This document shows positions 8,503 to 40,359 of a stretch of 64,000 nt of DNA, piece after piece (position 1 is the first letter of the stretch; the number at the start of each line of letters is the position of its first letter). Source of the stretch: a virus (taxonomy: Duplodnaviria > Heunggongvirae > Uroviricota > Caudoviricetes); IMG/VR virus record IMGVR_UViG_3300033143_002040, positions 35,712 through 99,711 of that record; one strand, written 5' to 3'. Both the position numbers and the translations under genes were made by a program. Under the pieces are notes generated by a model. That model had not been told where the DNA came from. It did no database searches and saw only the letters and a program-made list of their open reading frames with translations.

Positions 8503-8780
8503 TGGTAATAGAGATTGACGGCATTATCCATAACGGCAACCTTAAAACTGAATGGACTAAGTGGAGGGAAACATTTTGTTTCTTGCCACATAAAGACATT
8601 ACAGGAATATTTATCATGGGACTTATATGGTGTCGTGTGCAGGAATCTCGTATATATAAATATGAAAATGACATAGGTTATTACATATCGTCTAATTTAG
8701 GATATGTAGAGTACGCTAGAACGAAGAAAGATATTTTCTTACGTAGTCTCGCAGGAAAAGAATATAGGATAAAAATATGA
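8502..8780 (+). CDS. small protein, KEYFKKKLxG-family variant (HKDITG box)
   Basis: WTKWRETFCFLPHKDITGIFIMG ... TKKDIFLRSLAGKE. Confidence 0.5.
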   Translation: MVIEIDGIIHNGNLKTEWTKWRETFCFLPHKDITGIFIMGLIWCRVQESRIYKYENDIGYYISSNLGYVEYARTKKDIFLRSLAGKEYRIKI

Positions 8781-14436: not shown

Positions 14437-15351
14437 ATGAGCAATAAATATAAATACAGCGAAATATTTACTTCGATTCAAGGCGAAGGAACCTACTGTG
14501 GAACACCGACAGTTTGGCTTCGTTGGTTCTTATGTAATTTACAATGCAGCGGCTTTGGTCAGAAAATACCAGAAGAACGCAGTACACATATTTTACCATA
14601 TAAAGAATTCGACGTTAGCACTGTAAAGCGTATCGAAGATTTACCTGTTTGGGATTATGGTTGTGATTCTAGCTATAGCTGGGCGCGGAAATTCAAAGAT
14701 TTATGTCCTGCGCATACAGCAAGACAACTTGCACAGAAACTAGAAAACGAATTACGCAAGTTTGACAACAATCCTGACGGAAAATTCTTGCTAAATAATG
14801 AGCGCGAGCTAAAAGATGTACATTTTTGTATGACAGGTGGTGAGCCGATGCTTGAACGTACACAAGTAGGGCAAGTCGAGTTACTGCATGCGTTAGCAGA
14901 TAATGTGAACTTACCAAGATTTATTACAGTAGAGACAAACGGAACACAGACGCTAACAGATGAATTAGCAAAAACAATCTCGTCATACGTAGCAAGCGGC
15001 GGAGAATGGTTTTGGTCGTGTTCGCCTAAGCTATTATATACAAGTGGTGAGAAGCCAACTAAGGCAATTAAGCCTGCTGTAGTCAAAACGTATCAAGACG
15101 TTAGTGCGTTTGGACAACTAAAGTTTGTTGTAAGCAACAGACCAGAAGCATGGGATGAACTTGAAGAACGAGTTGAAGATTTTAGGAATGCAGGGATTGA
15201 GTGGCCTGTTTGGATAATGCCCGTTGGCGCGACAGTCGAATCACAACAAGACGAGGATGCTATTGCAATAATTGAGGAAACTATTCGTAGAGGTTATCAC
15301 GTTGCTACGAGAGTACATTGTTACATTTGGGGCAATCAGATAGGAACATAA
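14437..15351 (+). CDS. queE: QueE-like 7-carboxy-7-deazaguanine synthase (radical SAM)
   Basis: FTSIQGEGTYCGTPTVWLRWFLCNLQC matches the QueE signature; FCMTGGEPM SAM-binding motif; Cys spacing is atypical (CNLQC ... distant C). Confidence 0.65.
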   Translation: MSNKYKYSEIFTSIQGEGTYCGTPTVWLRWFLCNLQCSGFGQKIPEERSTHILPYKEFDVSTVKRIEDLPVWDYGCDSSYSWARKFKDLCPAHTARQLAQKLENELRKFDNNPDGKFLLNNERELKDVHFCMTGGEPMLERTQVGQVELLHALADNVNLPRFITVETNGTQTLTDELAKTISSYVASGGEWFWSCSPKLLYTSGEKPTKAIKPAVVKTYQDVSAFGQLKFVVSNRPEAWDELEERVEDFRNAGIEWPVWIMPVGATVESQQDEDAIAIIEETIRRGYHVATRVHCYIWGNQIGT

Positions 15352-15542
15352 TGAATCCTTATTCGCAAGATAGAAAGAAATGTATTAGACAATATGAAAC
15401 TTGGCGAAAAGGCGCTATGGACAAATGGAATGAACATCGTGTTTGGGTATATAACGACGGATCAGCAGTAGCAAGTGTTATACGAGGTCCGTTTTCTGAG
15501 AAAGAGTATTTTAAATTATTACTAGAAGGTACAGTACAATGA
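15351..15542 (+). CDS. small KEYFKKKLxG-family protein
   Basis: ...FSEKEYFKLLLEGTVQ; internal start MNPYSQ abuts the queE stop. Confidence 0.45.
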   Translation: MNPYSQDRKKCIRQYETWRKGAMDKWNEHRVWVYNDGSAVASVIRGPFSEKEYFKLLLEGTVQ

Positions 15543-18725: not shown

Positions 18726-18926
18726 ATGGCAGACGAAATAAAAAACTTTCGTTTAAAAATACGCAATACAGCTAGTCTCAAACGGAGAGAATTATCATTT
18801 GGTTTGGCAGAAGCGCAGCTTCTAGATACCGAAATAGTTGCTCTTGAAGCACATATAGAAAAATTAGAACTGGAGCTCCTACAGACAAAAACAATGTCCA
18901 TTGATATTGTGGGACGTGATTTTTAA
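18726..18926 (+). CDS. hypothetical coiled-coil protein (66 aa)
   Basis: ORF. Confidence 0.35.
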   Translation: MADEIKNFRLKIRNTASLKRRELSFGLAEAQLLDTEIVALEAHIEKLELELLQTKTMSIDIVGRDF

Positions 18927-18939
18927 ATGTGGAGTTTTA

Positions 18940-19995
18940 ATGAAAAGACTATTTATAGGGCTAGTCGCTCTATTGACAATCAGTACGGGGCAAGCACACG
19001 ACTTAGCTGATAGAATGAATGAGGTGCTTCCTGCCGTTGCGTATATACGAGTAGAACAATTTGCTGTCCGCGATAAGCTAAATCCTCTTACCAAACTTAC
19101 CTCTTCCATCCGAGTTCCAACCACACCTATCATTGGTACAGGATTTATCATTGATAATAACAACGTAGTAACAAATTATCACGTTATTGCTTCCGCTGTA
19201 AAACATAATACTGAAATTCACATAACCTTTGAAGGAAGTAATCAACGATTTCTAGCAACAGTTATTGGTTACGATAAAATAGCTGACGTTGCTTTGCTAA
19301 TAATTCCAGGTGAACACCAAAGTGTTGAGATATTAGATGACACTGATTTACGGATGGGCGATCCCGTATTCAGCATATCACATTTTTATGGCATCGGTTG
19401 GTCAGGCACACAAGGTGTAATTAGTTCTATTCGCCGGCAAGATCAACGATATCCTTACATCAATAACCTACAACTACAGCTATTGCAAGGCAGTGGTAGT
19501 TCAGGTGGCCCTGTATTCAATATGAATGGCGATGTCATTGCATTAAATCGAAGTATTCTTTCTATGTTTCCAAAATCAATAATACAAACACGTAGTTCCG
19601 TTCTTTCTATGGTAGGCTATCCTGTAAGGGGAGATACATTGATAGCTGCAATCGCGGGCATACGCAAGGATATCATTGTCGTGTATCTTGATCTAGGAGT
19701 GTCATTGATAACATTTGGAAAGGATAGTATGTTTCACCTTAACTATGCAAATGGAGATGATGAATACCCTATCGGCGTAATGGTAATGAGCATTGATAAA
19801 AATATATCTACTACTTTGCAACAATCAGATATTATTATCAGCATAGAAGGCAATAAATTCTCTGATCCTTCTGAGTTGTTTACATGGCTTAATGAACAGA
19901 TCAAATATAAAGTTGGAGATACAGTTAACATACAAGTTTACCGAGACGCAGAAATCATAAATATTGCAGTACCAATAACAATAGCAGGATTATAA
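18940..19995 (+). CDS. secreted trypsin-like serine protease (HtrA/DegP S1C-like) with N-terminal signal peptide
   Basis: MKRLFIGLVALLTISTGQA signal; His in NYHVIAS, Asp in DVALLII, Ser in GSSGGPVF. Confidence 0.85.
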   Translation: MKRLFIGLVALLTISTGQAHDLADRMNEVLPAVAYIRVEQFAVRDKLNPLTKLTSSIRVPTTPIIGTGFIIDNNNVVTNYHVIASAVKHNTEIHITFEGSNQRFLATVIGYDKIADVALLIIPGEHQSVEILDDTDLRMGDPVFSISHFYGIGWSGTQGVISSIRRQDQRYPYINNLQLQLLQGSGSSGGPVFNMNGDVIALNRSILSMFPKSIIQTRSSVLSMVGYPVRGDTLIAAIAGIRKDIIVVYLDLGVSLITFGKDSMFHLNYANGDDEYPIGVMVMSIDKNISTTLQQSDIIISIEGNKFSDPSELFTWLNEQIKYKVGDTVNIQVYRDAEIINIAVPITIAGL

Positions 19996-20253: not shown

Positions 20254-20895
20254 ATGAATTACGAATTTTACTATAACAGGCTGAATCAACGATCGGAAAA
20301 TCGGTTGCTAGAAGGCTATACTGAGAAACATCATATTATCCCCCGCTGCATGGGTGGCACGGATGATCCTGAGAACATTGCTATATTGACCGCTAGAGAA
20401 CATCATATAGCACACCAGTTATTGGTTAAGATGTATCCTGGCCATCACGGATTGATCTCCGCATTAAACGTAATGAGAACTGCTAGCAGTAAAAAGTATA
20501 GCTGGATTAAACGATTATGCCACGAACAATTATCTAAGAACTACAATGATCGTTATGGGGTTGATCGAGCGAAAAAGATAAGGAATAAACAATCTGTTTC
20601 GAAGATGGGCAATACCAACGGGCGATTCGGAAAAGGATGGAAAGCTACACCCGAACAAAAAGCAAGGATGTCCGAGGCACATAAAGGACAACTCGCATGG
20701 AATAAGGGCAAGAAAACTGGACCACAGACCCACGAACGCATTTCTCATCGTGCTCGTAAATGTCAAAAATCTTGTACAGTCGATGGCATAAAATATTCTT
20801 CGCGCAATGAAGCTGCTGACAAATTAAATATTCATATCACCACTATATATAAATGGCTTGCAAGCGGGCGAGCAAAGGAACACACAAATGGCTAG
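20254..20895 (+). CDS. HNH homing endonuclease (free-standing, copy 1)
   Basis: HHIIPRCMGGTDDPENIAILTAREHHIAH; paralog of 45414..46106. Confidence 0.8.
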   Translation: MNYEFYYNRLNQRSENRLLEGYTEKHHIIPRCMGGTDDPENIAILTAREHHIAHQLLVKMYPGHHGLISALNVMRTASSKKYSWIKRLCHEQLSKNYNDRYGVDRAKKIRNKQSVSKMGNTNGRFGKGWKATPEQKARMSEAHKGQLAWNKGKKTGPQTHERISHRARKCQKSCTVDGIKYSSRNEAADKLNIHITTIYKWLASGRAKEHTNG

Positions 20896-22152: not shown

Positions 22153-22181
22153 TTGACAAATGGCGCGCAGTTCCATATAAT
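22153..22181 (+). promoter_or_regulatory. sigma70-consensus promoter TTGACA-17-TATAAT
   Basis: perfect -35 and -10 hexamers. Confidence 0.7.
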
Positions 22182-22238: not shown

Positions 22239-23351
22239 ATGGCTAAGACAGACACGAATCAAAAAAGCATTCCAGTTCGACCTTCTGAACTTGTAGAAGT
22301 AGTCGAGCATGTAATGTCAGTAGGCCGTCCTTGCATGATTTGGGGACCGCCAGGAATCGGCAAATCAGACATTATCGCACAGATCGGAGCGAGAGAGAAT
22401 CGTCCCGTGATCGACCTGCGTTTGCTCTTGATGGAGCCGACTGACCTTAAAGGCATCCCTTTCTACGATCCGAAGACGGAAACGATGAAGTGGGGCAAGC
22501 CAGGTGAGCTTCCAGGTGAGGCCGATACAGAACTGCATAACGCTATTCTGTTCCTTGACGAGATTAACGCTGCACCGCAGTCGGTTCAGGCCGCTGCATA
22601 TCAGTTGATTCTGAATCGCAGAATTGGCGAGTACGAGCTTCCTGAATGTGTAAGTATCGTTGCTGCTGGTAACAGAGAGACTGATCGCGCAGTAACTTTT
22701 CGCATGCCGTCAGCACTTGCTAACAGGTTCATGCACTTTGAATTGATCGTATCTTTCGAAGATTGGCAGGACTGGGCAATTCGACACGGCGTACATCCTG
22801 ACGTAGTTGGTTTCTTGACTGCGCATCCGAACTACTTGTTCCAGTTTGATCCGAAGAGTGGCGACAAGGCTTTTGCTACTCCGCGTTCGTGGACGTTCGT
22901 TGGAGAGGCTCTGACTGACAAGCTTTCTGACAAGCTGAACGAAGTCATGGTCGCTGGCACAGTTGGTCTTGGACTCGCTACTGAATTCATGCAGAGCAGG
23001 CGCTTGAAAGGCAAGCTTCCGAATCCTCGCGACATCGTGTTGGGCAAGGTTACTAAGCTGAAGGAAGACAAAGCGATTGACGTTTCTGCTAAGTACTCGC
23101 TGGTTATCGGCATGTGCTACGCAATGTCTGAAATCAAGCAAGAGTTTGAAATGGACAAGTCTAAGGGTGACAAGGACTGGAACAAGGTCACTGACAACTT
23201 TTTGAAGTTTATGATGATCCCTGAACACTTCAAGAAGGAAATGGTCATCATGGCTGCTGTTACAGCATTCCGTCGCTACGACTTGGACTTCGATTCTGAG
23301 ACTCCCACTTTCAACAAATTCTTCAAAGAGTACCAAGAGTGGATTGTCTAA
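22239..23351 (+). CDS. MoxR/CobS-like AAA+ ATPase
   Basis: Walker A GPPGIGKS; Walker B ILFLDEINAAP; 370 aa typical of CobS/MoxR. Confidence 0.85.
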   Translation: MAKTDTNQKSIPVRPSELVEVVEHVMSVGRPCMIWGPPGIGKSDIIAQIGARENRPVIDLRLLLMEPTDLKGIPFYDPKTETMKWGKPGELPGEADTELHNAILFLDEINAAPQSVQAAAYQLILNRRIGEYELPECVSIVAAGNRETDRAVTFRMPSALANRFMHFELIVSFEDWQDWAIRHGVHPDVVGFLTAHPNYLFQFDPKSGDKAFATPRSWTFVGEALTDKLSDKLNEVMVAGTVGLGLATEFMQSRRLKGKLPNPRDIVLGKVTKLKEDKAIDVSAKYSLVIGMCYAMSEIKQEFEMDKSKGDKDWNKVTDNFLKFMMIPEHFKKEMVIMAAVTAFRRYDLDFDSETPTFNKFFKEYQEWIV

Positions 23352-23536: not shown

Positions 23537-23565
23537 TTGACGCAAGGGGTGTTTTACCGTATAAT
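23537..23565 (+). promoter_or_regulatory. sigma70-like promoter TTGACG-17-TATAAT with upstream inverted repeat
   Basis: -35 TTGACG 23537-23542; -10 TATAAT 23560-23565. Confidence 0.65.
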
Positions 23566-23594
23566 ATGTATATAAATTGATAGGAACTAATCAA

Positions 23595-25088
23595 ATGTCA
23601 CAGAAGTTTTCCCCAGAAGATAAATTAGTCAAAGCACGTATTGATTTTATTTACAACGATTGCGTGTTTCTCGGCAACTTAGCACTTCGACTTGAATTGG
23701 TCGATGCTACCGCATGGTGTCCTACTGCGGCAACTGACTTCAAGCATTTGTACTACAATCGAGATTTTATTGATCGTTGTTCACTTGAAGAAACCAAATT
23801 TGTGATTGCACACGAGGTTATGCATTGTGTGTACGATCACTTTTCTCGTCGTGAGGAACGTGATCCGCGTCTGTACAATTGTGCTGGCGACTACGTAATT
23901 AACTTGGAACTGAAGGATCTTGGAATCGGTTCTTTTCCTTCCAGTAATACCATGATGGATCCGAAGTACGAAGAATTCATCAAAGAGAATTTCCCTGAGC
24001 GTTACCGAAAGTATAAGAAAGAATTTGCTGGTGGTGAGCCAGGTGTGCTTTGCGAAGAAAAGTATCGCGATATGTCTTCTGAGGAAGTCTACAACATCCT
24101 AAAGAAAGAACAGGATGAGCGGGACAAGCAGAATGGTAAAGGCGAGAGCGACGGCCAGTGTGGCGAATGTGGCGGTACTGGACAGGCCCCAGGCGATCAA
24201 GGTGAAGGCGATCAAGATGGTGAAGGCGAAGGTGGCAGCGGCCAATGTGGCGGAAGCACCCCAGGTGATTGCCCGTCTTGTGGTGGTTCTGGCAAGAGTA
24301 AAGGCGGCCAGAACGGACCAATTTCACACGATATGCATATGGATCCTGAGGCTGGTGATGCTGATGGTGACGAAAATGATGGCTCGCAAGGTCCGATCAA
24401 GATTGACCAAGAAGAAATTGATCGGATGGACAGCGATATGCGTAAAGCGATCATGGACGCAGCAGCAGTTGCATCCGAAGCACGTGGTGGCGCAGGTAAC
24501 ATCCCAGGTGGTGTTAAGCGTCTGATTGATGATTGGACAGATTCTACAGTTGACTGGCGCGAGTATTTGAATAACAGCATTCAGTCAACTTTGAAGTCAG
24601 ATTACACATGGCAGCGTCAGAGCAGGAAGTCTCGCTCTACGAATTACTACTTGCCTGCAATGGACAACGATATGATGGTTAGTGTCGATCTTGCGATTGA
24701 TACGTCAGGTTCAATGTCTGATGAAATGTTGAGAGACATTCTTGCAGAGGTTAAAGGTATCATGGAGCAGTTCGCAGACTTCAAGCTTCGTGTATGGTGC
24801 TTCGATACTGAAACGTATGAAGTTCACACGTACACACCTGACACGGTTGATGAGATTTATGACTTCGAGTTAGAAGGTGGCGGTGGTACGATGTTTGAGT
24901 GCAATTGGGAAATGATGCGTCAGGAAGAAATTGTTCCAGATCAGTTCATTCTCTGCACAGACGGTTACCCCTGCGGAACTTGGGGCGAAGAGGATTACTG
25001 CGATACAGTATTCTTGGTGCACGGTCGTAAGAGCATTGTTGCTCCCTTCGGTGTTACGGTACATCACGAAAACGCTACTGACGATTAA
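23595..25088 (+). CDS. VWA-domain protein with N-terminal HExxH zincin-like motif and Gly/Cys-rich acidic linker (CobT/MoxR-partner-like)
   Basis: IAHEVMHCVYDH; MIDAS DTSGSMSDEM; linker GECGGTGQAPGDQGEGDQDGEGEGGSGQCGGSTPGDCPSCGGSGKS. Confidence 0.7.
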   Translation: MSQKFSPEDKLVKARIDFIYNDCVFLGNLALRLELVDATAWCPTAATDFKHLYYNRDFIDRCSLEETKFVIAHEVMHCVYDHFSRREERDPRLYNCAGDYVINLELKDLGIGSFPSSNTMMDPKYEEFIKENFPERYRKYKKEFAGGEPGVLCEEKYRDMSSEEVYNILKKEQDERDKQNGKGESDGQCGECGGTGQAPGDQGEGDQDGEGEGGSGQCGGSTPGDCPSCGGSGKSKGGQNGPISHDMHMDPEAGDADGDENDGSQGPIKIDQEEIDRMDSDMRKAIMDAAAVASEARGGAGNIPGGVKRLIDDWTDSTVDWREYLNNSIQSTLKSDYTWQRQSRKSRSTNYYLPAMDNDMMVSVDLAIDTSGSMSDEMLRDILAEVKGIMEQFADFKLRVWCFDTETYEVHTYTPDTVDEIYDFELEGGGGTMFECNWEMMRQEEIVPDQFILCTDGYPCGTWGEEDYCDTVFLVHGRKSIVAPFGVTVHHENATDD

Positions 25089-25089
25089 A

Positions 25090-25476
25090 ATGTATCAGAT
25101 GGTCAATCATAACGGCAACAAGGCTTACGAAGTCGATAATAAGCTTTATCAGACTCAAATGGAAGCTAAAGTTGATATTCAAGTGCAAAGGGCGAAGATT
25201 GATATAGAAATATTGCGTCTTGAGCAACAGCGAATAGCAGACTTTAGAAAAAAAGTTGGCCTTACTTTGCTAGAGAATGATGCAAGTGTCATGTTCACAA
25301 AGACAAGACAAGCAGTAATCGAATTGGCATTTGCTCACGAAATGGGAAAGACTCAGTACGTGATAGACCAAGCAGCATTAGCAGTTGCAAATACTCGCAC
25401 AATGTACGACTCAGTTTGCAGAAAGATTTTTAAGATTTGTTTGAAGCATGGACTCAAGAGTGAGCATTTAAAATGA
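25090..25476 (+). CDS. hypothetical protein (128 aa; start MYQMVNH)
   Basis: internal start right after upstream stop. Confidence 0.45.
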   Translation: MYQMVNHNGNKAYEVDNKLYQTQMEAKVDIQVQRAKIDIEILRLEQQRIADFRKKVGLTLLENDASVMFTKTRQAVIELAFAHEMGKTQYVIDQAALAVANTRTMYDSVCRKIFKICLKHGLKSEHLK

Positions 25477-25727
25477 CTTTAGGTGAAATAGTAAATAAGC
25501 GTCAACTTGACCTTAGACTTGAAAAGGCAGAAGCAGAATTGCAGTCTGCCTTAAGAGTGCTTGACTACTTGCTAAAAGAATCGGCCGCGACATTGTTTGG
25601 ATATGAGCGTAAGCCGAATCATAAAGAACGTTGTTATGCTAACGCCAAGTCACTTGACGTAGCACACGAAAAAATTGAGAAGTGTAAGAAAGAATTGTTT
25701 CAATTCAAATTGAAACACGGTGAATGA
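25473..25727 (+). CDS. small protein with KEYFKKKLxG-like C-terminus
   Basis: ...CKKELFQFKLKHGE. Confidence 0.4.
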   Translation: MTLGEIVNKRQLDLRLEKAEAELQSALRVLDYLLKESAATLFGYERKPNHKERCYANAKSLDVAHEKIEKCKKELFQFKLKHGE

Positions 25728-25737
25728 GAGAAGAAAG

Positions 25738-26991
25738 ATGGCTAAGAAAATACAAAATTATGAAGTAATGAAAGGTTTGTCTGGACAAGGCATTATCAAG
25801 TCTTGGACAAAGGGCGTTCCGTTTGAGTCACAAGCGCGGGATCAGCTAAAGAATATTGCATCGTTGCCGTTCATCCACAAGCATGTAGCAGCGATGCCTG
25901 ACGTACATTTAGGTAAGGGCGCGACGGTTGGGTCAGTAATTGCAACTAAGGGTGCGATTATTCCTGCTGCGGTAGGAGTAGATATTGGTTGCGGAATGAA
26001 TGCTGTACGACTTTCGTTGAAAGCTGCGGATTTGCCTGACACATTAACAAACGTGCGCGGAGAAATTGAGCGCATGGTTCCTGTTGGTCACGACTATCAC
26101 ACACGTTCGCGTATGGGATCAAAGTGGCACAACAAGACTGACAAGCTTTTGAACAACACTAACCAGCAGTTAGACCCAGGAATGCGGTCGATTCTTGCAA
26201 AGCATCCTACGATTGGTAAGATAGGTCGTGACTTTGAAGATCGCGCATACCGTCAGATTGGTACGCTTGGTGGTGGTAATCACTTTATTGAACTTTGCTT
26301 AGACGAGGCGGATGATGTTTGGGTAATGCTTCACTCAGGTTCACGTAATCCAGGAAACTGTATCGGCAACTATTTCATTCAGCTTGCTAAGAAAGAAATG
26401 GAACGATTCTTCATTCAGCTTCCTGATAAGGATTTAGCATACTTGGCCGAAGGCACAGAGTACTACGATGATTATATCGAAGCTGTTGGCTGGGCGCAAG
26501 ACTTTGCATATCGTAATCGACAGGTTATGATGGAACTTGTAATCATGGCACTGGAGCGCAAGCTGCCGCCGTTCTTGATTACTAAGGAAGCAATCAACTG
26601 TCACCACAACTATGTTTCGATGGAGAATCACTTCGGTGCGAATGTACACGTAACTCGCAAGGGTGCTGTACGTGCGCGTGTAGGCGACTACGGAATTATT
26701 CCAGGATCAATGGGTGCTAAGTCATTCATCGTTCGCGGACTTGGTAACAAGGATTCATTTAACTCTTGCTCTCACGGAGCAGGACGTTCACATTCACGAT
26801 CAGCGGCTAAGCGATTGTTTACAGTCGAGGATCACGAACGAGCTACGGCAGGTGTTGAGTGTCGTAAGGATGCTGGTGTGCTTGATGAGACACCTGCTGC
26901 TTACAAGGACATTGATGCTGTTATGAATGCTCAGAGAGATTTAGTTGAGATTGTTCACACGTTGAAGCAAGTAGTCTGCGTAAAAGGATAA
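25738..26991 (+). CDS. rtcB: RtcB RNA 3'-phosphate ligase
   Basis: MPDVHLGKGATVGSV, GVDIGCGM, GGGNHFIEL, CHHNY, HGAGRS motifs all present and in order. Confidence 0.9.
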   Translation: MAKKIQNYEVMKGLSGQGIIKSWTKGVPFESQARDQLKNIASLPFIHKHVAAMPDVHLGKGATVGSVIATKGAIIPAAVGVDIGCGMNAVRLSLKAADLPDTLTNVRGEIERMVPVGHDYHTRSRMGSKWHNKTDKLLNNTNQQLDPGMRSILAKHPTIGKIGRDFEDRAYRQIGTLGGGNHFIELCLDEADDVWVMLHSGSRNPGNCIGNYFIQLAKKEMERFFIQLPDKDLAYLAEGTEYYDDYIEAVGWAQDFAYRNRQVMMELVIMALERKLPPFLITKEAINCHHNYVSMENHFGANVHVTRKGAVRARVGDYGIIPGSMGAKSFIVRGLGNKDSFNSCSHGAGRSHSRSAAKRLFTVEDHERATAGVECRKDAGVLDETPAAYKDIDAVMNAQRDLVEIVHTLKQVVCVKG

Positions 26992-27028
26992 GATAATGAG
27001 TGAAAGAGACTGTTCAGCAAAAAACATA

Positions 27029-27271
27029 ATGCAGATGATTGGATTCTGTTGGGTATTATTCATTGGTCTTGCATTCGTTACTGGTTGTAGCGAACCAACG
27101 CCACAAGAAAGATTTGAAACTTATGTTGCTAATACAGGCACTCCGAATGGTGCAACTAACATCGAAATCATAGATGAAAAGTGGTACACATTTGAGTACA
27201 ACGATCAGTGTTTCTTGGCAACGAGATACTGGCGTCACGCTGCATTAACGAAAATTGATTGCGAGGATTAA
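27029..27271 (+). CDS. putative lipoprotein (lipobox LAFVTGC)
   Basis: MQMIGFCWVLFIGLAFVTGC signal + lipobox; ORF track start 26996. Confidence 0.5.
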   Translation: MQMIGFCWVLFIGLAFVTGCSEPTPQERFETYVANTGTPNGATNIEIIDEKWYTFEYNDQCFLATRYWRHAALTKIDCED

Positions 27272-27475
27272 ATGAATTTCTTAGACGCTAAGGAACTACA
27301 GAAACATGCGATGAAGGCCAAGTATGGCTGGCGTAGGTTCTTTATTCCTACACCCAGGTCCATTAAGAACGATGCATTTAATACTGCCTTTCGCATCAGA
27401 AATAATGGTGGTCGGCCAGAAGAACAAACTTCGGCACGACTAGACTTTGTACGTAAGTATCCGATAAAGGATTAG
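27272..27475 (+). CDS. hypothetical basic protein (67 aa)
   Basis: ORF. Confidence 0.4.
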   Translation: MNFLDAKELQKHAMKAKYGWRRFFIPTPRSIKNDAFNTAFRIRNNGGRPEEQTSARLDFVRKYPIKD

Positions 27476-27476
27476 A

Positions 27477-27788
27477 ATGAGTTTTTGCTCACATTGCGGA
27501 TCGAAGAACGCACCTGTAACACCATCTGCTAACAAAGGATATACGATGTATGTTGCAGAGGAAGGTGAATCTTGTACAGAATGTTACGATCCTGATATTG
27601 AAATGTTAATGTGCGATGATTGTAACGGAATAACTTACAAAAGCATCAGCATCACTCCGCCACCGATGTCCAATCCCAAAACAACTAAGATTCTGGGTGG
27701 CATAGGCTCGCGGAAGGTGTTGTGGCTTATTGGTGGCGAGTGGGTCGAGAAAGGCTGGCTCTTGCCGCAGGTAGGTTCAGATGTTTAA
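27477..27788 (+). CDS. hypothetical Zn-ribbon protein
   Basis: CSHCGS...CTECYD...CDDCNG. Confidence 0.45.
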   Translation: MSFCSHCGSKNAPVTPSANKGYTMYVAEEGESCTECYDPDIEMLMCDDCNGITYKSISITPPPMSNPKTTKILGGIGSRKVLWLIGGEWVEKGWLLPQVGSDV

Positions 27789-28119
27789 ATGGAACACAGA
27801 CAAGATTAGTTCAGATTTGCTAGACATTCCTAATGTCGAAGCGGTCATTGAACACGACCCTGGCGGGGATGTAGACACTAGCAACCTTCTCGCTAAAGTA
27901 ACTGGCGCAGACGAATACATTTATGTGTGCGGGTTTAGTGTTGACAATGTTATCACTGATCCTAGAGACACTGACATTGAAATGGTCGAAATTACAGATC
28001 AAAGCGGTGACGGGTTACAAAGCATCGACTTTGAGGTCGCGCGGGCGTATATAGCCGTACGTCAATATTTCGTAGGGCAGAATGTAGAAGTCGTTAACAG
28101 ACTAAAGGATTATTTCTAA
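27781..28119 (+). CDS. hypothetical protein (112 aa)
   Basis: ORF. Confidence 0.45.
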   Translation: MFKWNTDKISSDLLDIPNVEAVIEHDPGGDVDTSNLLAKVTGADEYIYVCGFSVDNVITDPRDTDIEMVEITDQSGDGLQSIDFEVARAYIAVRQYFVGQNVEVVNRLKDYF

Positions 28120-28224
28120 TGAATGATACAATAGTATTACTTATCATGTTCTCGCCAGTCTTTAGCATGTGCATATATAATGCGATCACCATGTGTGAAG
28201 CATTGAAGACAAAGGAAAGTTGAT

Positions 28225-28503
28225 ATGACTTGTAAATGTGGAAGTACACGCATCGCAGGAGTGGGTGCAAAATGTTCTGATTTATGTTATACTACATTAC
28301 CTGGCCGTAAAGATATTGACGGTTATGTGGTAAATGGGCTTGGCATCGGCGGTGGCGACTATGTAGAATTCGACTACTGCCTCGACTGTGGGCAACTACA
28401 GGGAACGTTTCCAATCACTGAGAAGTCGATCAGCGAAGCGTTGGATGACGCAGGTCTCTCCGAAAGAGAATACGACGAAGACGGATTTGAGGTACGAACA
28501 TGA
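28225..28503 (+). CDS. hypothetical Zn-ribbon protein
   Basis: CKCGS...CLDCGQ. Confidence 0.45.
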   Translation: MTCKCGSTRIAGVGAKCSDLCYTTLPGRKDIDGYVVNGLGIGGGDYVEFDYCLDCGQLQGTFPITEKSISEALDDAGLSEREYDEDGFEVRT

Positions 28504-28772: not shown

Positions 28773-29114
28773 ATGCAGTATTTTAAATGGCAAGAAGGTC
28801 GGCAGAAAAGTGGCTACGATAAGATGCTCCTTATTCAAAATACCTTCCTTCTTCCATTTGATTGCTACATTATTCGCTATCGTGAAGGTTCAGAGATTGA
28901 TACGCACACTGATCCTGTAGAAGGAAAAGAACATCACAGAATCAACATTGTATTAAAAAATGCGGAGTATGGCGGGCACTTCTGGTGCAACGACGAAGAA
29001 TCCTTAAACATATTTAATCGCATTATTTATTTTCGACCAGACAAATTTGAACACTCAGTTTCAAAAATACTATTTGGAACTCGGTATGTACTAAGTATAG
29101 GATGGGTTAAGTGA
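28773..29114 (+). CDS. hypothetical protein; possible small 2OG-Fe(II)-oxygenase-like fold (HxD...H)
   Basis: DTHTDPVEGKEHHRINIV ... GGHFW; weak. Confidence 0.4.
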   Translation: MQYFKWQEGRQKSGYDKMLLIQNTFLLPFDCYIIRYREGSEIDTHTDPVEGKEHHRINIVLKNAEYGGHFWCNDEESLNIFNRIIYFRPDKFEHSVSKILFGTRYVLSIGWVK

Positions 29115-29494
29115 GCGCAATAACAGAGCCGAATAGCAAAGAGCAATTCCTCAAACTTTTAAGTGGTAAGGAAATTGCGAGAGACAAATTCGGAACAGTA
29201 ATCAATATTGATGATATTGTTGTGTTTGGCTCAGGTGTGAAAAGCGGTCCAGATTTGAATTACGGGCTCGTAACTAAAATAAATTACAATAATATAGATG
29301 AGAAGACTGGCGAAGAAAAAGTATCTACTGTTGGTGTGCGAAAATGTCAAAAAAGCTGGGGTGCTAATGGCGTTTATAAACTGAACCTACATAGAGTTTC
29401 GATTAAGCGATGGGAGAATACTTGGGTCATTACTGAGTTTACACCGCAAGAAGTTAAAGATGCTATCAAAGCAGGAAACAACATAAAGAAATGA
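29111..29494 (+). CDS. tandem-paralog family protein 1 of 4
   Basis: IVVFGSGVKSGPDLNYGLVTKINYN. Confidence 0.5.
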   Translation: MSAITEPNSKEQFLKLLSGKEIARDKFGTVINIDDIVVFGSGVKSGPDLNYGLVTKINYNNIDEKTGEEKVSTVGVRKCQKSWGANGVYKLNLHRVSIKRWENTWVITEFTPQEVKDAIKAGNNIKK

Positions 29495-29658
29495 TTATAG
29501 CAACACTAGAAATGTGGCAGGATGGACAAGATGAACCTGTTAAGGAATTCGATAAAGAGTTTCCGAGCATGGCACATATGCATCAATGGTTGAATATTCA
29601 AGCGCAACATCCATTTATGTGGCTCATATTAATAGGTACGACGGAGATAAATGAATGA
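29491..29658 (+). CDS. small ORF (55 aa) not in ORF track, ATGA-coupled
   Basis: MIIATLEMWQDG... Confidence 0.3.
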   Translation: MIIATLEMWQDGQDEPVKEFDKEFPSMAHMHQWLNIQAQHPFMWLILIGTTEINE

Positions 29659-30056
29659 TAATGGAAGCAACGGAAGCTGATCGCAAACGGATTGAATTCG
29701 TAAGTAAACTCAAAGACAAACCGTATGCGTGTGACATATTTAATAGAGCAATACAACCTGGGGACATTCTAATCTTTGGTACTGGAACGCAGAGTGCAGC
29801 AGGATTGAACTTCGGACTTGTCGAAAAATTCAATTACAAAACTGCAACTCAATATACTTACACTCATAAAACTGGTGAAGATTATGTTTCGTCAGTAACA
29901 GTCAAAGTTGCAACTGTACGAAACGACATCATACGATTGCAGAATCGACGCGGGCTTGCATCATTTAGAGAAGCCTGCATTCTAGACAATCCGCCAGAAA
30001 ATATTATGGATGTATTTGTTGAGTGGGAGGAAAGCAATGTCAAGCGCAAAAGATAA
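29655..30056 (+). CDS. tandem-paralog family protein 2 of 4
   Basis: ILIFGTGTQSAAGLNFGLVEKFNYK. Confidence 0.5.
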   Translation: MIMEATEADRKRIEFVSKLKDKPYACDIFNRAIQPGDILIFGTGTQSAAGLNFGLVEKFNYKTATQYTYTHKTGEDYVSSVTVKVATVRNDIIRLQNRRGLASFREACILDNPPENIMDVFVEWEESNVKRKR

Positions 30057-31256: not shown

Positions 31257-32765
31257 ATGGATAGTATAATGTCAGGGTTTAGCTTGGTACCGAGCTTTGG
31301 CGGACAGATCGCGATTGGGATAGGTGTATTTCTATTCCTCGTTGTCTTTGTCGCCAAACTGTATCGAGTGGTAGTAAGGCCGAACGAGGTGCATGTTGTA
31401 CAGAATCGCAACTCGACGGTAATGTATGGTAAGACACCCGAGCCTGTTGAAGACGCTAATGGCGATTTAATTGAAAGCACAGATCACATCGTCAGCAACA
31501 GTTATTACGCATGGCCTACTTGGTGGCCGCGTATTGGTGTAACAGTTAGAATTTTGTCACTGGCTATTTTCGACCAAAAGCTAACTGATTACGAAGCATA
31601 CGATATTGGTAAGGTTCCGTTTATGGTTGACGTAGTAGCGTTCTTCCGTATCTTTGATCCATCTATTGCTGCGAAGCGCACGACTGATCTACATGAGTTG
31701 CGTTGCCAGCTAGAATCAATCTTGCAAGGTGCTACACGTAACATTCTTGCTAAGAACGAGATTGAAGAAATCATGCAGGAGCGTAACACGTATGGTCAAT
31801 TGTTTACGACTGAGACCGAAGATCAACTACGGGCTTGGGGCGTAAGTAATGTTAAGAATATCGAGCTTATGGATATTCGTGACGGTAAGGACTCTAGGGT
31901 TGTTACAGACATCATGGCTAAGAAAGAATCTTTGATTGATCGTGAGTCGCGTGTTGTTCGTGCTGATAACAAAAAGAAAGCCGAGACAGCGGAAATTGAG
32001 GCAGGACAGGTTATTGCTGTTCGCGCTCAAGAAGCTGAACAGTTAGTTGGTGAGCGTACTGCTGAGAAAGACAAGCAGGTTGGTATCGCTAACGAAATGG
32101 CGAATCAGGAAATTCAAGAGCAAGCTAAGACTACTGCTGAGAAAATTATGGCAGTTCAGTTGGTCGAGAATGTTCGTGCTGCTGAGATTAACCGCGAAGT
32201 ACAAGTAGTTGCGGCAGATCAGGACAAGCAGACGTTTGTTATTCGTGCAGACGGTGAGAAGCAGCAGAAGATTATTACTGCCGAAGCTGAGAAAGCTGAG
32301 ACAGTACTTGTTGCTGAAGGTATCTTGGTACAGCAGTTGAAAGACGCTGAAGGTATTCTCGCAGTCGGTACTTCTGAGGCAGAAGCAAAACGCTTGTTTG
32401 AAATGGCTCGCGTTACACCTGAGCTAGAAATGGCTCGCGAAATTGGCGAAAACGAAGGTTATCAGGGTTACTTGGTTAGCATTCGTGGAGTCGAGAAAGA
32501 CGAGACAGTTGGCGTTGAGCAAGCTAAGGCATTGCAGGATGCTGGCATCAAGGTTATTGCTAACACAGGAAATGTCGCTAGCGGCATTGACAGTGTGATG
32601 GATCTTTTCTCCGCAGCAGGCGGAACAGAAATCGCAGCAATGGCTGAGGCGCTTAGTCAGACTGACGCTGGAGCAGCACTGTTGAGTCGTTTGGGTATTA
32701 ATACCGGGACTGAAAAGACAACGACAGCAAAGCCACGCAAAGTAACAGCGGCTAAAAAGTCGTAG
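31257..32765 (+). CDS. SPFH/band-7 (flotillin/YqiK-like) membrane protein with long coiled-coil C-terminus
   Basis: N-terminal TM helix; YDIGKVPFMVDVVAFFRIFDP SPFH core; EA/EQ-rich coiled coil. Confidence 0.75.
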   Translation: MDSIMSGFSLVPSFGGQIAIGIGVFLFLVVFVAKLYRVVVRPNEVHVVQNRNSTVMYGKTPEPVEDANGDLIESTDHIVSNSYYAWPTWWPRIGVTVRILSLAIFDQKLTDYEAYDIGKVPFMVDVVAFFRIFDPSIAAKRTTDLHELRCQLESILQGATRNILAKNEIEEIMQERNTYGQLFTTETEDQLRAWGVSNVKNIELMDIRDGKDSRVVTDIMAKKESLIDRESRVVRADNKKKAETAEIEAGQVIAVRAQEAEQLVGERTAEKDKQVGIANEMANQEIQEQAKTTAEKIMAVQLVENVRAAEINREVQVVAADQDKQTFVIRADGEKQQKIITAEAEKAETVLVAEGILVQQLKDAEGILAVGTSEAEAKRLFEMARVTPELEMAREIGENEGYQGYLVSIRGVEKDETVGVEQAKALQDAGIKVIANTGNVASGIDSVMDLFSAAGGTEIAAMAEALSQTDAGAALLSRLGINTGTEKTTTAKPRKVTAAKKS

Positions 32766-35196: not shown

Positions 35197-35757
35197 ATGA
35201 TGAGTGATACATTAATTTTAAACGCAGATGGCAACCCGTTATCGGTAGTTCCGATTTCGGTTGTTTCATGGATGACAGCAATTAGGCTTGCTTACCAACA
35301 TAAGGTACGAGTTATTAGTTCGTATGAAGATTGGGAAGTGCATTCACCTAGCTGCACCTGGCAGGTTCCGTCGATTGTTATGTGTACGGAATTTGTGAAG
35401 TGGAGCAGGCAAGTCAAGTACAATCGCAGCAACATTTTGCTACGAGATATGTACACCTGTCAGCTTTGTGGTGCTAAGCCGCCTGCGAGTCAGTTAACTC
35501 TTGACCACGTAGTTCCTAGAGTTCACGGTGGTAAGACGAACTGGACTAACATCGTTGCTGCATGTAAGAAGTGTAACCACGACAAGGGTCACAACAAGAA
35601 GATTCGTCCTAAGAGGCTTCCGACTAAGCCGAACTATTACGAGCTAATGGCAAAGAGGATGAAGTTCCCAATTACGATTCGTGATCCAGAATGGCTAACA
35701 TTCCTAGCATGGCCTGAGGATAAGATCGAGATTCGCCCTCCACGGAAGGTTGCATGA
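35197..35757 (+). CDS. HNH nuclease (McrA/HNH-family)
   Basis: CQLCGAKP...LDHVVPRVHGGKTNWTNIVAACKKCNHDKG. Confidence 0.8.
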   Translation: MMSDTLILNADGNPLSVVPISVVSWMTAIRLAYQHKVRVISSYEDWEVHSPSCTWQVPSIVMCTEFVKWSRQVKYNRSNILLRDMYTCQLCGAKPPASQLTLDHVVPRVHGGKTNWTNIVAACKKCNHDKGHNKKIRPKRLPTKPNYYELMAKRMKFPITIRDPEWLTFLAWPEDKIEIRPPRKVA

Positions 35758-37078: not shown

Positions 37079-37100
37079 CACTTAGTACAAGTGAATGAGA

Positions 37101-37124
37101 AGGGACGCTATGCGTCCTTTTTCT
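37101..37124. terminator. bidirectional intrinsic terminator between convergent genes (GGACGC-tat-GCGTCC + T-run)
   Basis: perfect 6-bp stem; T5; A-run on the opposite side. Confidence 0.7.
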
Positions 37125-37128
37125 TTGG

Positions 37129-37674
37129 TTATTGTAATGGGACATACGGAGTTGTTCGACGCTGATAAGTGCAACGATCATACAGAAGGTCTAGTTGTGT
37201 ATCATGCATTGGAAATACTACGCCGCTATCAACGATATGCCAATCCTCTATAAGTGGTGGAGGGAAATATGCATCGCCATCAAATTCTTGATGAATAACT
37301 GTAGCATAAATTTTCTGCGTATGTGGCATAGCTTGCTTATAAATCTCTGCGCCTCCAGCGATCATTATTTCATTATCTTTTGCAACGAGTTTCGCTGCAA
37401 ATATTGCTTTAGATACTTCGTGAAATATCTTAACATCTGGGTGATCTACAGTATAGTCTTTATCTCTAGTGAGCAAATATGTTGTCCGACCCATGAGAGG
37501 TCTATATTTTTCAGGAATTGATTCATACGTCTTGCGACCCATTATAACAATTTTGTCCATTGTTACTGCTTTGAAATATTCTAAATCTTCTCGTATGTAC
37601 CAAGGAATTTCATTTCCTGATCCGATAACGAAGTTGTGAGAAAAGGCTACAATTATACTTACAGTCATATACAT
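37129..37674 (-). CDS. frd: dihydrofolate reductase
   Basis: VIGSGNEIPW, IMGRKTYESIP, LLTRDKD, IAGGAEIY motifs. Confidence 0.85.
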   Translation of the reverse strand: MYMTVSIIVAFSHNFVIGSGNEIPWYIREDLEYFKAVTMDKIVIMGRKTYESIPEKYRPLMGRTTYLLTRDKDYTVDHPDVKIFHEVSKAIFAAKLVAKDNEIMIAGGAEIYKQAMPHTQKIYATVIHQEFDGDAYFPPPLIEDWHIVDSGVVFPMHDTQLDLLYDRCTYQRRTTPYVPLQ

Positions 37675-37707
37675 ATTTATCTTAATTAAAATCAGATAAA
37701 TAATAGT

Positions 37708-38040
37708 ATGGCAATAGAACTAAAATTCGACACAAGAGTTAATCTAGCAGAGCAACTTATCACCGACGGTGAAGTTAATCCTATAATTGACTTCGATGGC
37801 ACACGATATTCTATCTCAATAAGCAAAGCACGTGGAATGGTAGAGTGGCTTCCTTTCAAACTCACCACACAAACTATCATCGGAGACAAGATATACACAT
37901 ATCCGTATGCTGCCCATAACATTTTATTTGAAGCTCTCCTAGGGCCATCCTCGAAGACATATTCACGTTTTGCCACTAGCTCTGAGTCTACTTTCCCGAA
38001 TTTTCCTGTTCCTCCAGATATGGGATCAGTTACGCCATAA
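37708..38040 (+). CDS. hypothetical protein (110 aa); competes with the minus-strand ORF 37692..38201
   Basis: plus ORF ends just before the 38057 promoter; strand assignment uncertain. Confidence 0.3.
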   Translation: MAIELKFDTRVNLAEQLITDGEVNPIIDFDGTRYSISISKARGMVEWLPFKLTTQTIIGDKIYTYPYAAHNILFEALLGPSSKTYSRFATSSESTFPNFPVPPDMGSVTP

Positions 38041-38056
38041 AGTGGAAACATAGCTA

Positions 38057-38085
38057 TTGACTTCTGGTAATAGTGGAAGTATAAT
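38057..38085 (+). promoter_or_regulatory. sigma70-consensus promoter TTGACT-17-TATAAT, only ~6 nt before the ATG (near-leaderless)
   Basis: TTGACT 38057-38062; TATAAT 38080-38085. Confidence 0.6.
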
Positions 38086-38091
38086 ATGTGA

Positions 38092-38340
38092 ATGAATACT
38101 GAAACTGATACCAATGAAACTAGGTCTGCATTCGTGGTGTATGTTCCGAGCAAGGGATTCATCAAGAATAAGCAGAGAAATTTCACCGAAGACTTCGACA
38201 AGGCGCGCCTCTATGGCCGTGAGTCTGACGCATCGAATAGTCTTGGCATGAGTGGCCTTAAAGATTCGGGCTTCGTAATTCCAGTGAAGATGATCCTTGA
38301 TCCGAAGCTTATTTTCAAAGCGGTGCTTAAAGGCAAATGA
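38092..38340 (+). CDS. hypothetical protein (82 aa)
   Basis: ORF. Confidence 0.45.
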   Translation: MNTETDTNETRSAFVVYVPSKGFIKNKQRNFTEDFDKARLYGRESDASNSLGMSGLKDSGFVIPVKMILDPKLIFKAVLKGK

Positions 38341-38681
38341 ACTGGCGCGACTTTATATCTGCGTGGAAAGAAGTTCCTTCGTATCTCTATGATGCGAGCA
38401 TTACTCTTTGGGCTACTCCCCTCTGGTGGAAGATTACAACCATAATCTATCTTGTTACATTGTTCGGCGGAATGTGGTTTTCTATTACTGCGATGATCGC
38501 ATGGATGGATAGCTTGTCTGCGAACGTTGCGTATGAATACAACCCATTAGATGAACTGATATTTTGGGGATGGATGTTTGGTACTATCGCAGGTATGTTC
38601 GTCTATCGAGAAATCTTTAGTCGTGTCGCATCTAAGGTTCTTCTATTTCTCAATTGTATCGAGGAAGGCGACCTAGACTAA
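38337..38681 (+). CDS. hypothetical membrane protein (114 aa)
   Basis: multiple TM segments. Confidence 0.45.
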   Translation: MNWRDFISAWKEVPSYLYDASITLWATPLWWKITTIIYLVTLFGGMWFSITAMIAWMDSLSANVAYEYNPLDELIFWGWMFGTIAGMFVYREIFSRVASKVLLFLNCIEEGDLD

Positions 38682-38780
38682 TGGATAAAGACGTTCTACG
38701 ACGCATTGCTGAACGCGGTCTTGCTCGCGCACAAGATGAAGAAGATAGCGAATACTGCGATATTTTTCAGCACATCTTAG

Positions 38781-39080
38781 ATGAATTGGGACGAACGTAT
38801 GAATGACATTAAATTTGAACAAGGCAAGAAACTTTTGTTGGAAGGCTGGGTTTATTTATTCATAGGACAGCTTATAGTCGGCGGCCATTCAATTTATGAA
38901 TTAGCTGACAAATATCCTGACTTGGGAATTATCCAATATGCGTTTGTACTTTCGTTTGGGTCGGTAATCATAGCTACGTTTCTTTTAGGTGTTATTACCA
39001 TCTGCTACTTTATCGCAAAAGCAATTGGTGTTAAAATAGAGTCGTGGAGAGAGCGTTGTAGGGAACGTAACAAAACATGA
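38781..39080 (+). CDS. hypothetical membrane protein (99 aa)
   Basis: TM segments. Confidence 0.45.
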   Translation: MNWDERMNDIKFEQGKKLLLEGWVYLFIGQLIVGGHSIYELADKYPDLGIIQYAFVLSFGSVIIATFLLGVITICYFIAKAIGVKIESWRERCRERNKT

Positions 39081-39222
39081 ATATGTATGGCGGAATAAGG
39101 CCGCTACAAATTAATTCTGGAACATTCTGGCGTTGTCATCATGGACATACGTTACTAATGCCTTGCAAGCATTGCGGGCTTAAGCATCCTATTCGTTACA
39201 TCAAACATTGGTGGGCAGCACA

Positions 39223-39570
39223 ATGACTCATCTTTGGAAAACTTCTGAAACATATATATTTGATATGCCTGAAGTTCGCATAATGGATGTATATGGAAAA
39301 AGTGTACGACACCCACTAAAGCCATACCTTATGAAATTAAATCCGAAAGTGACTAATGTGAGGTTCTGCGAAGACGGCCACGCCACTCTCATCGACATTG
39401 GAATACCTAAATATCCCGATGAACATCCTTACTTTACATCAGACGATTCTCATGCGCTATTAGTCTCGTATATGGATTATGCTAATATGTCGTATGAAGA
39501 AATACACGCATGGTACAAAGATCCTGATGCATACAAAAAGTCTAAAGAGGATGACAATGACGTTAGCTAA
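39223..39570 (+). CDS. hypothetical protein (start MTHLWK)
   Basis: ORF. Confidence 0.45.
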   Translation: MTHLWKTSETYIFDMPEVRIMDVYGKSVRHPLKPYLMKLNPKVTNVRFCEDGHATLIDIGIPKYPDEHPYFTSDDSHALLVSYMDYANMSYEEIHAWYKDPDAYKKSKEDDNDVS

Positions 39571-39660
39571 GTTTATTGAGCTAGCTCCTTACTGGTGGTA
39601 CGCAGCAGGTTCTATCTGCTTCCTTATCGGATCGGTAATCGTAATACTAAAGAATATATA

Positions 39661-39825
39661 ATGAGTAATACAAAATTTTGTGCTTGTGAAGGCACGACTG
39701 ACGCACTACCCTCTGTACCTGTACTCACAGACGCAGCAATGTTTGAATCTACTAAAGATGGTGAAGAAGGCTTTGAGTGTAGATATTGCGGTGAATTCTA
39801 TTCAAAGGCTTCACTAAAGAGTTAA
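39661..39825 (+). CDS. small Zn-ribbon protein (54 aa)
   Basis: CACEG...CRYCGE. Confidence 0.4.
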   Translation: MSNTKFCACEGTTDALPSVPVLTDAAMFESTKDGEEGFECRYCGEFYSKASLKS

Positions 39826-39831
39826 GAGTGT

Positions 39832-40137
39832 ATGAAGAAATACTACACCTATCGCATTGGCTGGACTGAATTAGACCTTTATTACTACGGAGTACGCACA
39901 GCAAACAAATGGCAACCTGAAGAAGATTTCTGGGTTCAGTATTTTACGAGTAGCCCGTCAGTTGCAGTATTACGTGAACAATTTGGCGAACCTGATCTAC
40001 GAGAAATACGTAGAAGATTTGAAACAAGACTAGAAGCCAAGCGATGGGAAATGCGAGCATTGCGATATATTGGCACTCAACACCCCAAATATATCAACGG
40101 CAAACCTAGAGATTTTTATAAAGAATGGGCTAAATAA
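39832..40137 (+). CDS. hypothetical protein (101 aa)
   Basis: ORF. Confidence 0.45.
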   Translation: MKKYYTYRIGWTELDLYYYGVRTANKWQPEEDFWVQYFTSSPSVAVLREQFGEPDLREIRRRFETRLEAKRWEMRALRYIGTQHPKYINGKPRDFYKEWAK

Positions 40138-40170
40138 GTGTGTTGGTGGTAGTATATAACAGGAGTCATA

Positions 40171-40359
40171 ATGGAAATCGTATTAGCATTTTTTGTTTTA
40201 TCAATAGTAGCGTTCGTCTACTTTATCCCTACCATTGTCGCGTTCATGCGAGGACATCACAATCGTTGGCCGATTGCAGTTCTTAACTTTTTTCTTGGTG
40301 GAACTTGTATTGGCTGGGTGATTGCGTTAATTTGGTCACTAACTGTAGTTAAAGATTAA
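40171..40359 (+). CDS. small membrane protein (62 aa)
   Basis: two TM helices. Confidence 0.45.
   Translation: MEIVLAFFVLSIVAFVYFIPTIVAFMRGHHNRWPIAVLNFFLGGTCIGWVIALIWSLTVVKD

Follow-up and report, generated by a model that had tools for sequence, protein, structure and literature searches.

We analysed a 64,000-nucleotide stretch (hereafter the window) of a Caudoviricetes genome, IMG/VR virus record IMGVR_UViG_3300033143_002040, positions 35,712 to 99,711. The gene at positions 25738 to 26991 encodes a phage member of the RtcB family of RNA ligases with an intact active site. Judged from its sequence, the product is almost certainly an active RtcB ligase. The explanation that we consider probable as a whole is that a competent ligase of the RtcB1 type, encoded by a large virulent phage, would reseal RNase-cut transfer RNAs (tRNAs) during infection.

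RtcB Family Membership and Gene Start

The product aligned with the complete Pfam RtcB profile (PF01139, profile positions 1–426 of 426, protein residues 36–417) and scored 439.7 bits, where the gathering score is 27 (E-value 1.9e-131). It also matched phrog_1075, annotated as 'tRNA splicing ligase', with 489.1 bits over residues 8–417. Solved RtcB structures were recovered from Thermus thermophilus (E-value 2.4e-36), Pyrococcus horikoshii (E-value 2.5e-32) and human (E-value about 1e-25). The identity to RtcB of Escherichia coli K-12 (b3421, NC_000913.3) was 59% (E-value 9e-179), and the two proteins are colinear from residue 7 of the window protein to a common C-terminus, QVVCVKG. The longest insertion in this alignment is at most 7 residues, and a short variable segment lies at about residues 115–175. 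A single-sequence AlphaFold2 model had a mean predicted local distance difference test score of 29.4 and was unusable; the fold is implied only through the full-length homology to solved structures. The RtcB family assignment is confirmed as securely as sequence analysis permits. The first-pass annotation had called a phage-encoded RtcB, and the profile matches, the identity to the E. coli enzyme and the phage gene context all agree with that call.

The models for RtcB subtypes gave a consistent result. TIGR03073, the NCBIfam model for PrfH-associated RtcB2, returned 133.5 bits (cut-off, 271.8), and the score for the PRK09588 model was far under its cut-off. The top NCBIfam match was to intein-containing RtcB models (NF052663/NF038162; 446 bits, cut-off 1050), of which only the extein parts were matched. 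On these scores, the window protein is classified as an intein-less RtcB of the E. coli RtcB1 type.

This classification bears on the possibility that the enzyme repairs ribosomal RNA (rRNA) in the manner of RtcB2–PrfH, mending for instance 16S rRNA that colicin E3-like toxins have cleaved in the decoding centre. RtcB2 is specific for 16S rRNA and provides a precedent for an rRNA-specific RtcB paralogue (PMC9304027), and infection could plausibly trigger host ribotoxins. However, the TIGR03073 score falls short of its cut-off, the 59% identity is to E. coli RtcB1 and not to RtcB2, and the release-factor-like PrfH gene was not found in the window. We regard rRNA repair as very improbable.

The ORF list (ORF, open reading frame) gives one long plus-strand frame at 25720–26991 with a GTG start, and an in-frame ATG is found at 25738. 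Directly 5' of the ATG is a purine-rich tract, GAGAAGAAAG, which is probably a weak Shine-Dalgarno-like ribosome-binding region. The preceding ORF stops 10 nt before the ATG; the alternative GTG start overlaps with it and has no purine tract. In alignments, homologues from phages and metagenomes begin at residues 1–6 of the ATG-initiated protein. Furthermore, exactly the same 417-residue product was independently called on Joint Genome Institute (JGI) metagenome contig Ga0366827_1006045, where the gene order is identical. Because of the purine tract, the spacing from the upstream ORF, the alignment of the homologues and the JGI gene call, the ATG is the preferred start, and thus the coordinates 25738–26991 are right.

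Active Site and Selection

The roles of the active-site residues were taken from structures of the Shuman laboratory (PMC9745838, PMC8051266). Their conservation was examined in an alignment of 82 sequences (the window protein, E. coli RtcB and 80 viral homologues) and in one of 162 sequences, to which 80 cellular homologues had been added. All residues in Table 1 were invariant in both alignments, and R350 and R354 of the window protein were likewise conserved.

Table 1. Active-site residues of RtcB and their counterparts in the window protein.
Role	P. horikoshii	E. coli	Window
Mn1 ligands	Cys98, His234, His329	Cys78, His185, His281	C85, H199, H290
Mn2 ligands	Asp95, Cys98, His203	Asp75, Cys78, His168	D82, C85, H182
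Guanylylated nucleophile	His404	His337	H346 (motif CSHGAGR)
Guanine contacts	Glu206, Lys480		E185, K416
Phosphate (triphosphate) contacts	Asn202, Asn330		N181, N291
5'-OH strand-positioning arginine	Arg238	Arg189	R203

The hallmark motifs that had been noticed at first reading are therefore all there: the metal ligands, the histidine nucleophile and the guanine-binding residues. Loss of metal-binding His or Cys residues had been named as the observation that would speak against the assignment; C85, H182, H199 and H290 are all kept, and they are invariant among the 162 sequences. Family membership together with the intact active site leads us to expect ligase chemistry (PMC9745838, PMC8051266).

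We calculated the ratio of nonsynonymous to synonymous substitution rates (dN/dS, Nei–Gojobori) against the two closest relatives, which are IMG/VR sequences with 85% and 81% amino acid identity. The ratios were 0.08 and 0.05, which are approximate values because dS approaches saturation, but their direction is clear. They indicate that strong purifying selection maintains rtcB in a viral lineage.

The GC content at third codon positions (GC3) was 0.42 for rtcB, 0.55 for the MoxR-like ATPase gene upstream, 0.44 for the VWA protein gene and 0.42 for the SPFH protein gene, compared with 0.24–0.39 for core and structural genes. These raised values suggest a cellular origin, and this could be taken to mean that rtcB is a decaying or functionless passenger acquired from a host. 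However, the frame is full-length and intact, every catalytic residue is kept, the dN/dS ratios of 0.05–0.08 come from a virus-only subclade, and the best cellular relative, at only 63–65% identity, points to no recent donor. The passenger explanation is effectively refuted.

Relatives of the Window Protein and Their tRNA Genes

RtcB homologues were found in 688 deposited phage records, the best being 62% identical to the window protein. The identities of the deposited phage homologues were 58–62% over 95–100% of the length. They include pf16, RVTF4, PHB04, Psa21, RP12/RP31 and Erwinia and Caulobacter jumbo phages, in which the gene is annotated as tRNA splicing ligase or RtcB. The closest sequences of all were from uncultivated IMG/VR contigs (85%, 81% and 72–73% identity). 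The best cellular relatives were 60–65% identical and were spread across many proteobacterial lineages; they give no sign of a recent donor. A neighbour-joining tree placed the window protein and those of loci L005–L010 in a virus-only subclade nested among cellular sequences.

We compared 80 viral loci (10 kb on either side of rtcB) with 80 cellular loci (within 6 kb). None of the 80 viral loci had RtcA or RtcR in this range, whereas RtcA was found at 18 and RtcR at 24 of the 80 cellular loci. Thus, phage rtcB is uncoupled from the host stress regulon.

A tRNA gene lay at most 300 nt from rtcB at 16/80 viral and 7/80 cellular loci. At L010, a sister to the window's subclade, rtcB sits amid 22 tRNA genes with gaps of 6–26 nt; the gene is embedded in arrays of 18–22 tRNAs at L010, L032 and L034, and at L059 it is placed between two tRNA-Lys(UUU) genes. 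It is also inside or beside tRNA arrays at L038, L020, L028, L030, L048, L050, L061, L062, L070, L075 and L076. This adjacency supports a tRNA connection for phage RtcB generally, and not for the window or L005–L009 in particular.

Two other observations were made at these loci. A tRNA with anticodon CUA was predicted at 3749–3823 of the viral locus L054 (called tRNA-Pyl by ARAGORN), and this amber-suppressor-type tRNA could reflect stop-codon recoding in that phage. At L039, a permuted transfer-messenger RNA was predicted at 15038–15409, beside three tRNA genes and about 4 kb 3' of rtcB.

The tRNA arrays might suggest that the ligase serves the phage's own RNA, either by maturing or repairing phage tRNAs (split, permuted or nuclease-processed) or by joining or circularising transcripts. 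The array setting is shared by many viral relatives, with the tRNAs of L010 only a few nucleotides away, and RtcB is the tRNA-splicing ligase of archaea and eukaryotes (PMC9745838). However, neither tRNA genes nor Rfam families, group I introns included, were detected in the 64-kb window, which yielded neither a splicing endonuclease nor another gene for RNA processing. Moreover, tRNA introns in bacteria and phages are usually of the self-splicing group I kind, which also counts against such a function. Co-regulation of genes that maintain translation would account for the adjacency just as well. We consider service to the phage's own RNA unlikely.

Proposed Role in Infection

Published work makes the resealing of cut tRNAs the most likely role. 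E. coli RtcB1 repairs damaged tRNAs efficiently in vitro (PMC9304027). The bacterial Rtc operon is induced by tRNA halves with cyclic-phosphate ends, which are ligands of RtcR through its CARF domain (PMC7790460). In a comparative genomic study of jumbo phages, phage RtcB was assigned to the rejoining of tRNAs that metal-independent RNases have cleaved (PMC7824862). We therefore favour, with moderate confidence, the view that the main job of the window enzyme would be to counter host RNase damage to tRNA. This role, which the first-pass annotation had also put forward, agrees with the RtcB1 type of the protein, with the lack of RtcA and RtcR at the viral loci and with the nearness of tRNA genes at 16/80 of them.

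The enzyme is predicted to depend on guanosine triphosphate (GTP) and Mn2+ and to ligate RNA with a 3'-phosphate or 2',3'-cyclic phosphate to RNA with a 5'-OH. The proposed mechanism, adopted from characterised family members, has four steps. His346 would attack GTP and form RtcB-His346-GMP (GMP, guanosine monophosphate), while Asp82/Cys85/His182 and Cys85/His199/His290 coordinate two Mn2+ ions. The 2',3'-cyclic phosphate end of the RNA would then be hydrolysed to a 3'-phosphate, to which GMP would be passed to give RNA-3'pp5'G. Finally, the 5'-OH of the other fragment, placed by Arg203, would attack and produce a normal 3'-5' phosphodiester. The presumed targets are tRNAs of the host or the phage, and possibly other RNAs, cut by metal-independent host RNases such as PrrC- or colicin-type anticodon nucleases and HEPN effectors, whose products have 2',3'-cyclic-phosphate and 5'-OH ends. 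Resealing would keep translation running. RtcB would work by itself, with no RtcA cyclase, RtcR regulator or archease to assist it, and its expression would probably be early, from host-type promoters. Two near-consensus candidate sigma-70-type promoters (Table 2) hint at possible early transcription of rtcB by the host RNA polymerase; the one at 23537–23565 is supported only by its match quality and intergenic position.

Several results weigh against this explanation. The window holds no further RNA-repair gene, so that no operonic context points to a substrate, and a tRNA scan of the window found zero genes. Among the relatives, the excess of tRNA adjacency at viral loci is only suggestive (Fisher's test on non-independent loci, p = 0.07), and the closest of them, L005–L009, have no tRNA genes within 10 kb on either side of rtcB. 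The promoter-like sites in the region numbered 17, with 15.1 expected from shuffled sequences, which is no excess. The literature on phage RtcB that we found consists of annotations and comparative genomics, and no biochemical or genetic study of any phage RtcB was found in it. RNA is also not the sole possible substrate, as E. coli RtcB acts on DNA ends in vitro too (PMC8051266).

This last point raises the possibility of DNA-end work, in which the enzyme seals or caps the 3'-phosphate/5'-OH breaks made by host nucleases in phage DNA. In vitro, the RtcBs of both E. coli and P. horikoshii join DNA strands that have a 5'-OH (PMC8051266), and many genes in the block that contains rtcB belong to DNA metabolism (PolB, the RNase H-like exonuclease and homing endonucleases). 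However, the association of its relatives with tRNA arrays points to RNA, and the cited RtcB literature does not establish an in vivo DNA role for any RtcB. Efficient sealing also needs an RNA-like 3'-phosphate strand. A function on DNA is very improbable. Other functions, in which repair for translation would not be the primary task, can be imagined: the enzyme may be a signal quencher that consumes cyclic-phosphate tRNA halves and hides RNA damage from the host, it may make phage-specific ligated or circular RNAs, or it may be coupled to the neighbouring MoxR/VWA pair. A solo, probably early gene without RtcA/RtcR would be compatible with the first two. Taken together, these functions seem quite improbable.

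The first-pass annotation had proposed hosts expressing PrrC, RloC or Hachiman-type tRNases. Hachiman acts on DNA and is not known to act on tRNA, so it is misplaced in this list; fitting RNase challenges are PrrC, colicin D/E5-type nucleases, RnlA/LsoA and Cas13a.

RNA-Repair Partners and NADAR

We searched essentially all window ORFs of at least 50 amino acids with Pfam and PHROGs for archease, RtcA, RtcR, Pnkp, Rnl1/2, KptA/Tpt1, 2H, a CCA-adding enzyme, Ro/TROVE and PrfH, and none was found.

The first-pass annotation had grouped RtcB with a NADAR protein in an anti-defence repertoire. The NADAR gene is real (Table 2), while its tie to RtcB is weak. It lies 21.6 kb upstream of rtcB with about 40 ORFs between them. 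Ligation by RtcB leaves no 2'-phosphate, and clean-up involving nicotinamide adenine dinucleotide (NAD+) and adenosine diphosphate ribose (ADP-ribose) is not needed; thus, there is no mechanistic tie between NADAR and RtcB. The link that has been proposed between NADAR and RNA repair is through NAD+-dependent removal of the 2'-phosphate left by heal-and-seal ligases (PMC9503650). At most, NADAR and rtcB could be named together as genes of host conflict.

Phage Genome and Gene Neighbourhood

A near-identity DNA search with positions 24500–28500 against 50,697 deposited phages gave no match. The window DNA polymerase was 38–43% identical to those of jumbo phages of 350–490 kb (Phosso, Atu_ph07, GAP32 and relatives). 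The source is a novel virulent phage, probably of large or jumbo size. The features are listed in Table 2; a T4 RNase H-like 5'-3' exonuclease is also encoded in the window.

Table 2. Positions of rtcB and other features in the window.
Feature	Position	Strand	Evidence and remarks
Family-B DNA polymerase (PolB)	96–2855		
NADAR-domain protein	3600–4088	+	Pfam 98.4 bits (cut-off 35.1); just 3' of DNA polymerase
Peptide deformylase	8777–9310		145.6 bits; cellular-type auxiliary gene
QueE-like radical-SAM protein	14437–15351	+	phrog_2076, 180 bits; weak Pfam Radical_SAM match
Trypsin-like protease with PDZ domain (HtrA-like)	18901–19995		Cellular-type auxiliary gene
HNH/NUMOD3-type homing endonuclease, first	20254–20895	+	
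Candidate sigma-70-type promoter, TTGACA-17-TATAAT	22153–22181	+	12/12; 5' of MoxR-like ATPase gene
MoxR-like AAA ATPase	22239–23351	+	phrog_1297, 329 bits; heads gene block holding rtcB
Candidate sigma-70-type promoter, TTGACG-17-TATAAT	23537–23565	+	11/12; intergenic; nearest strong consensus match 5' of tightly packed gene string 23577–26991
DUF2201 putative metallopeptidase and VWA protein	23577–25088	+	Pfam 136.9 and 48.5 bits
Purine-rich tract	25728–25737	+	Directly 5' of ATG; read from sequence
rtcB coding sequence	25738–26991	+	417 amino acids plus stop; Pfam, PHROG, E. coli homology
SPFH/Band-7 protein	31257–32765		502 amino acids; cellular-type auxiliary gene
HNH/NUMOD3-type homing endonuclease, second	35197–35757	+	
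Dihydrofolate reductase (DHFR)	37129–37674		158.6 bits; cellular-type auxiliary gene
HNH/NUMOD3-type homing endonuclease, third	45414–46106	−	
Virion protein	46881–62807	−	5,308 amino acids; phrog_10938 'virion structural protein'

The MoxR-like ATPase and the VWA protein were considered as functional partners of rtcB and rejected. The pair is next to rtcB at 2/80 viral loci only, those of the two closest contigs (L005 and L006), and this co-occurrence is accounted for by shared ancestry. A long low-complexity insert rich in Gly, Asp, Glu and Cys occupies about residues 185–290 of the VWA protein, and the PHROGs label of this protein's family, 'HNH endonuclease', looks like a misnomer. The small flanking ORFs (25084–25476, 25473–25727, 26996–27271 and others) were likewise rejected as conserved partners; they had no homologues in the 80 viral loci and no family matches. 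Two plus-strand ORFs further downstream, 29111–29494 and 29655–30056 (127 and 133 amino acids), are paralogous (38% identity over 82 residues, E-value 7e-15), with no Pfam family and no homologues in the 80 viral loci.

The QueE-like protein hints at 7-deazaguanine (queuosine/archaeosine-type) base modification; other genes of the pathway were not identified in the window. The first homing endonuclease has 213 amino acids in the ORF list and 305 as called on JGI contig L004. The 5,308-residue virion protein matched phrog_10938 with 899 bits in its N-terminal half and 300 bits in its C-terminal half, and a Pfam scan of it found no domain. It is far longer than the profile (length 3324) and among the largest phage proteins likely to be met.

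Pfam matches among 55 small ORFs included two to Gp23, the major capsid protein (best E-value 2.8e-7), and one to Imm_superinfect (E-value 6.6e-19). The ORFs behind these matches were not located: ten candidates were scanned singly, and all were negative. Genes up to 37078 are transcribed from the plus strand and those from 40356 onward mostly from the minus strand, with a mixed zone at about 37100–40350. The cumulative GC skew has its maximum at about 40 kb, where the signs of the GC and AT skews flip.

In sum, this rtcB is an ordinary, moderately divergent addition to the phage rtcB genes, a class that has many members and has been described before, and it has no unusual domain, partner or context. 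Its value is the confident annotation of one more sequence-divergent phage RtcB, at most 62% identical to deposited phages and 85% to an uncultivated contig. It is also a further data point that phage RtcBs stand solo, detached from the RtcA/RtcR regulon and often beside phage tRNA arrays. The action of phage RtcB against a defined host RNase defence is a general question worth testing, for which the window gene gives no special handle.

Comparison with Known Systems

The window protein has the same metal ligands, nucleophile and 5'-OH arginine as E. coli RtcB (RtcB1), the 3'-phosphate/5'-OH RNA ligase that has been defined biochemically, without large insertions or deletions, and like chemistry, including archease-independent action, would be expected of it. 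The E. coli rtc operon differs in its organisation. In the window, rtcB is solo, with neither rtcA downstream nor the sigma-54 activator RtcR, and candidate sigma-70 promoters take the place of RtcR/sigma-54 control.

The RtcBs of P. horikoshii (1uc2/4dwq/7lfq) and T. thermophilus (2epg) are homologous to the window protein across the whole catalytic domain, and D95, C98, N202, H203, E206, H234, H329, N330, H404 and K480 of the P. horikoshii enzyme are all matched. However, archaeal RtcB is about 65–70 residues longer, contains insertions, functions in tRNA splicing and is stimulated by archease, which was not found in the window. Bacterial RtcB2–PrfH shares the PF01139 superfamily with the window protein, which is under the TIGR03073 cut-off and has no accompanying PrfH; RtcB2 differs in that it repairs 16S rRNA and not tRNA (PMC9304027).

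T4 Pnkp and Rnl1 share the presumed purpose of restoring tRNA that has been cut to 2',3'-cyclic-phosphate and 5'-OH ends (PMC7824862, PMC3592404). However, they are unrelated proteins, which heal the ends to 3'-OH and 5'-phosphate before a ligase dependent on adenosine triphosphate seals them, whereas RtcB joins the ends directly with GTP. No Pnkp or Rnl1/Rnl2 domain was found in the window.

Other known counterparts are the phages with phrog_1075 proteins, such as Pseudomonas pf16 (gp31), Bordetella PHB04 (gp041), Ralstonia RP12/RP31, Pseudomonas Psa21, RVTF4 and the Caulobacter CcrRogue-type phages. These RtcBs differ from the window protein in sequence (at most 62% identity), and the MoxR/VWA pair is common only to the window and its two closest IMG/VR contigs. 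In these phages too, rtcB is a stand-alone gene among small early-type ORFs, and the same role has been predicted for it (PMC7824862).

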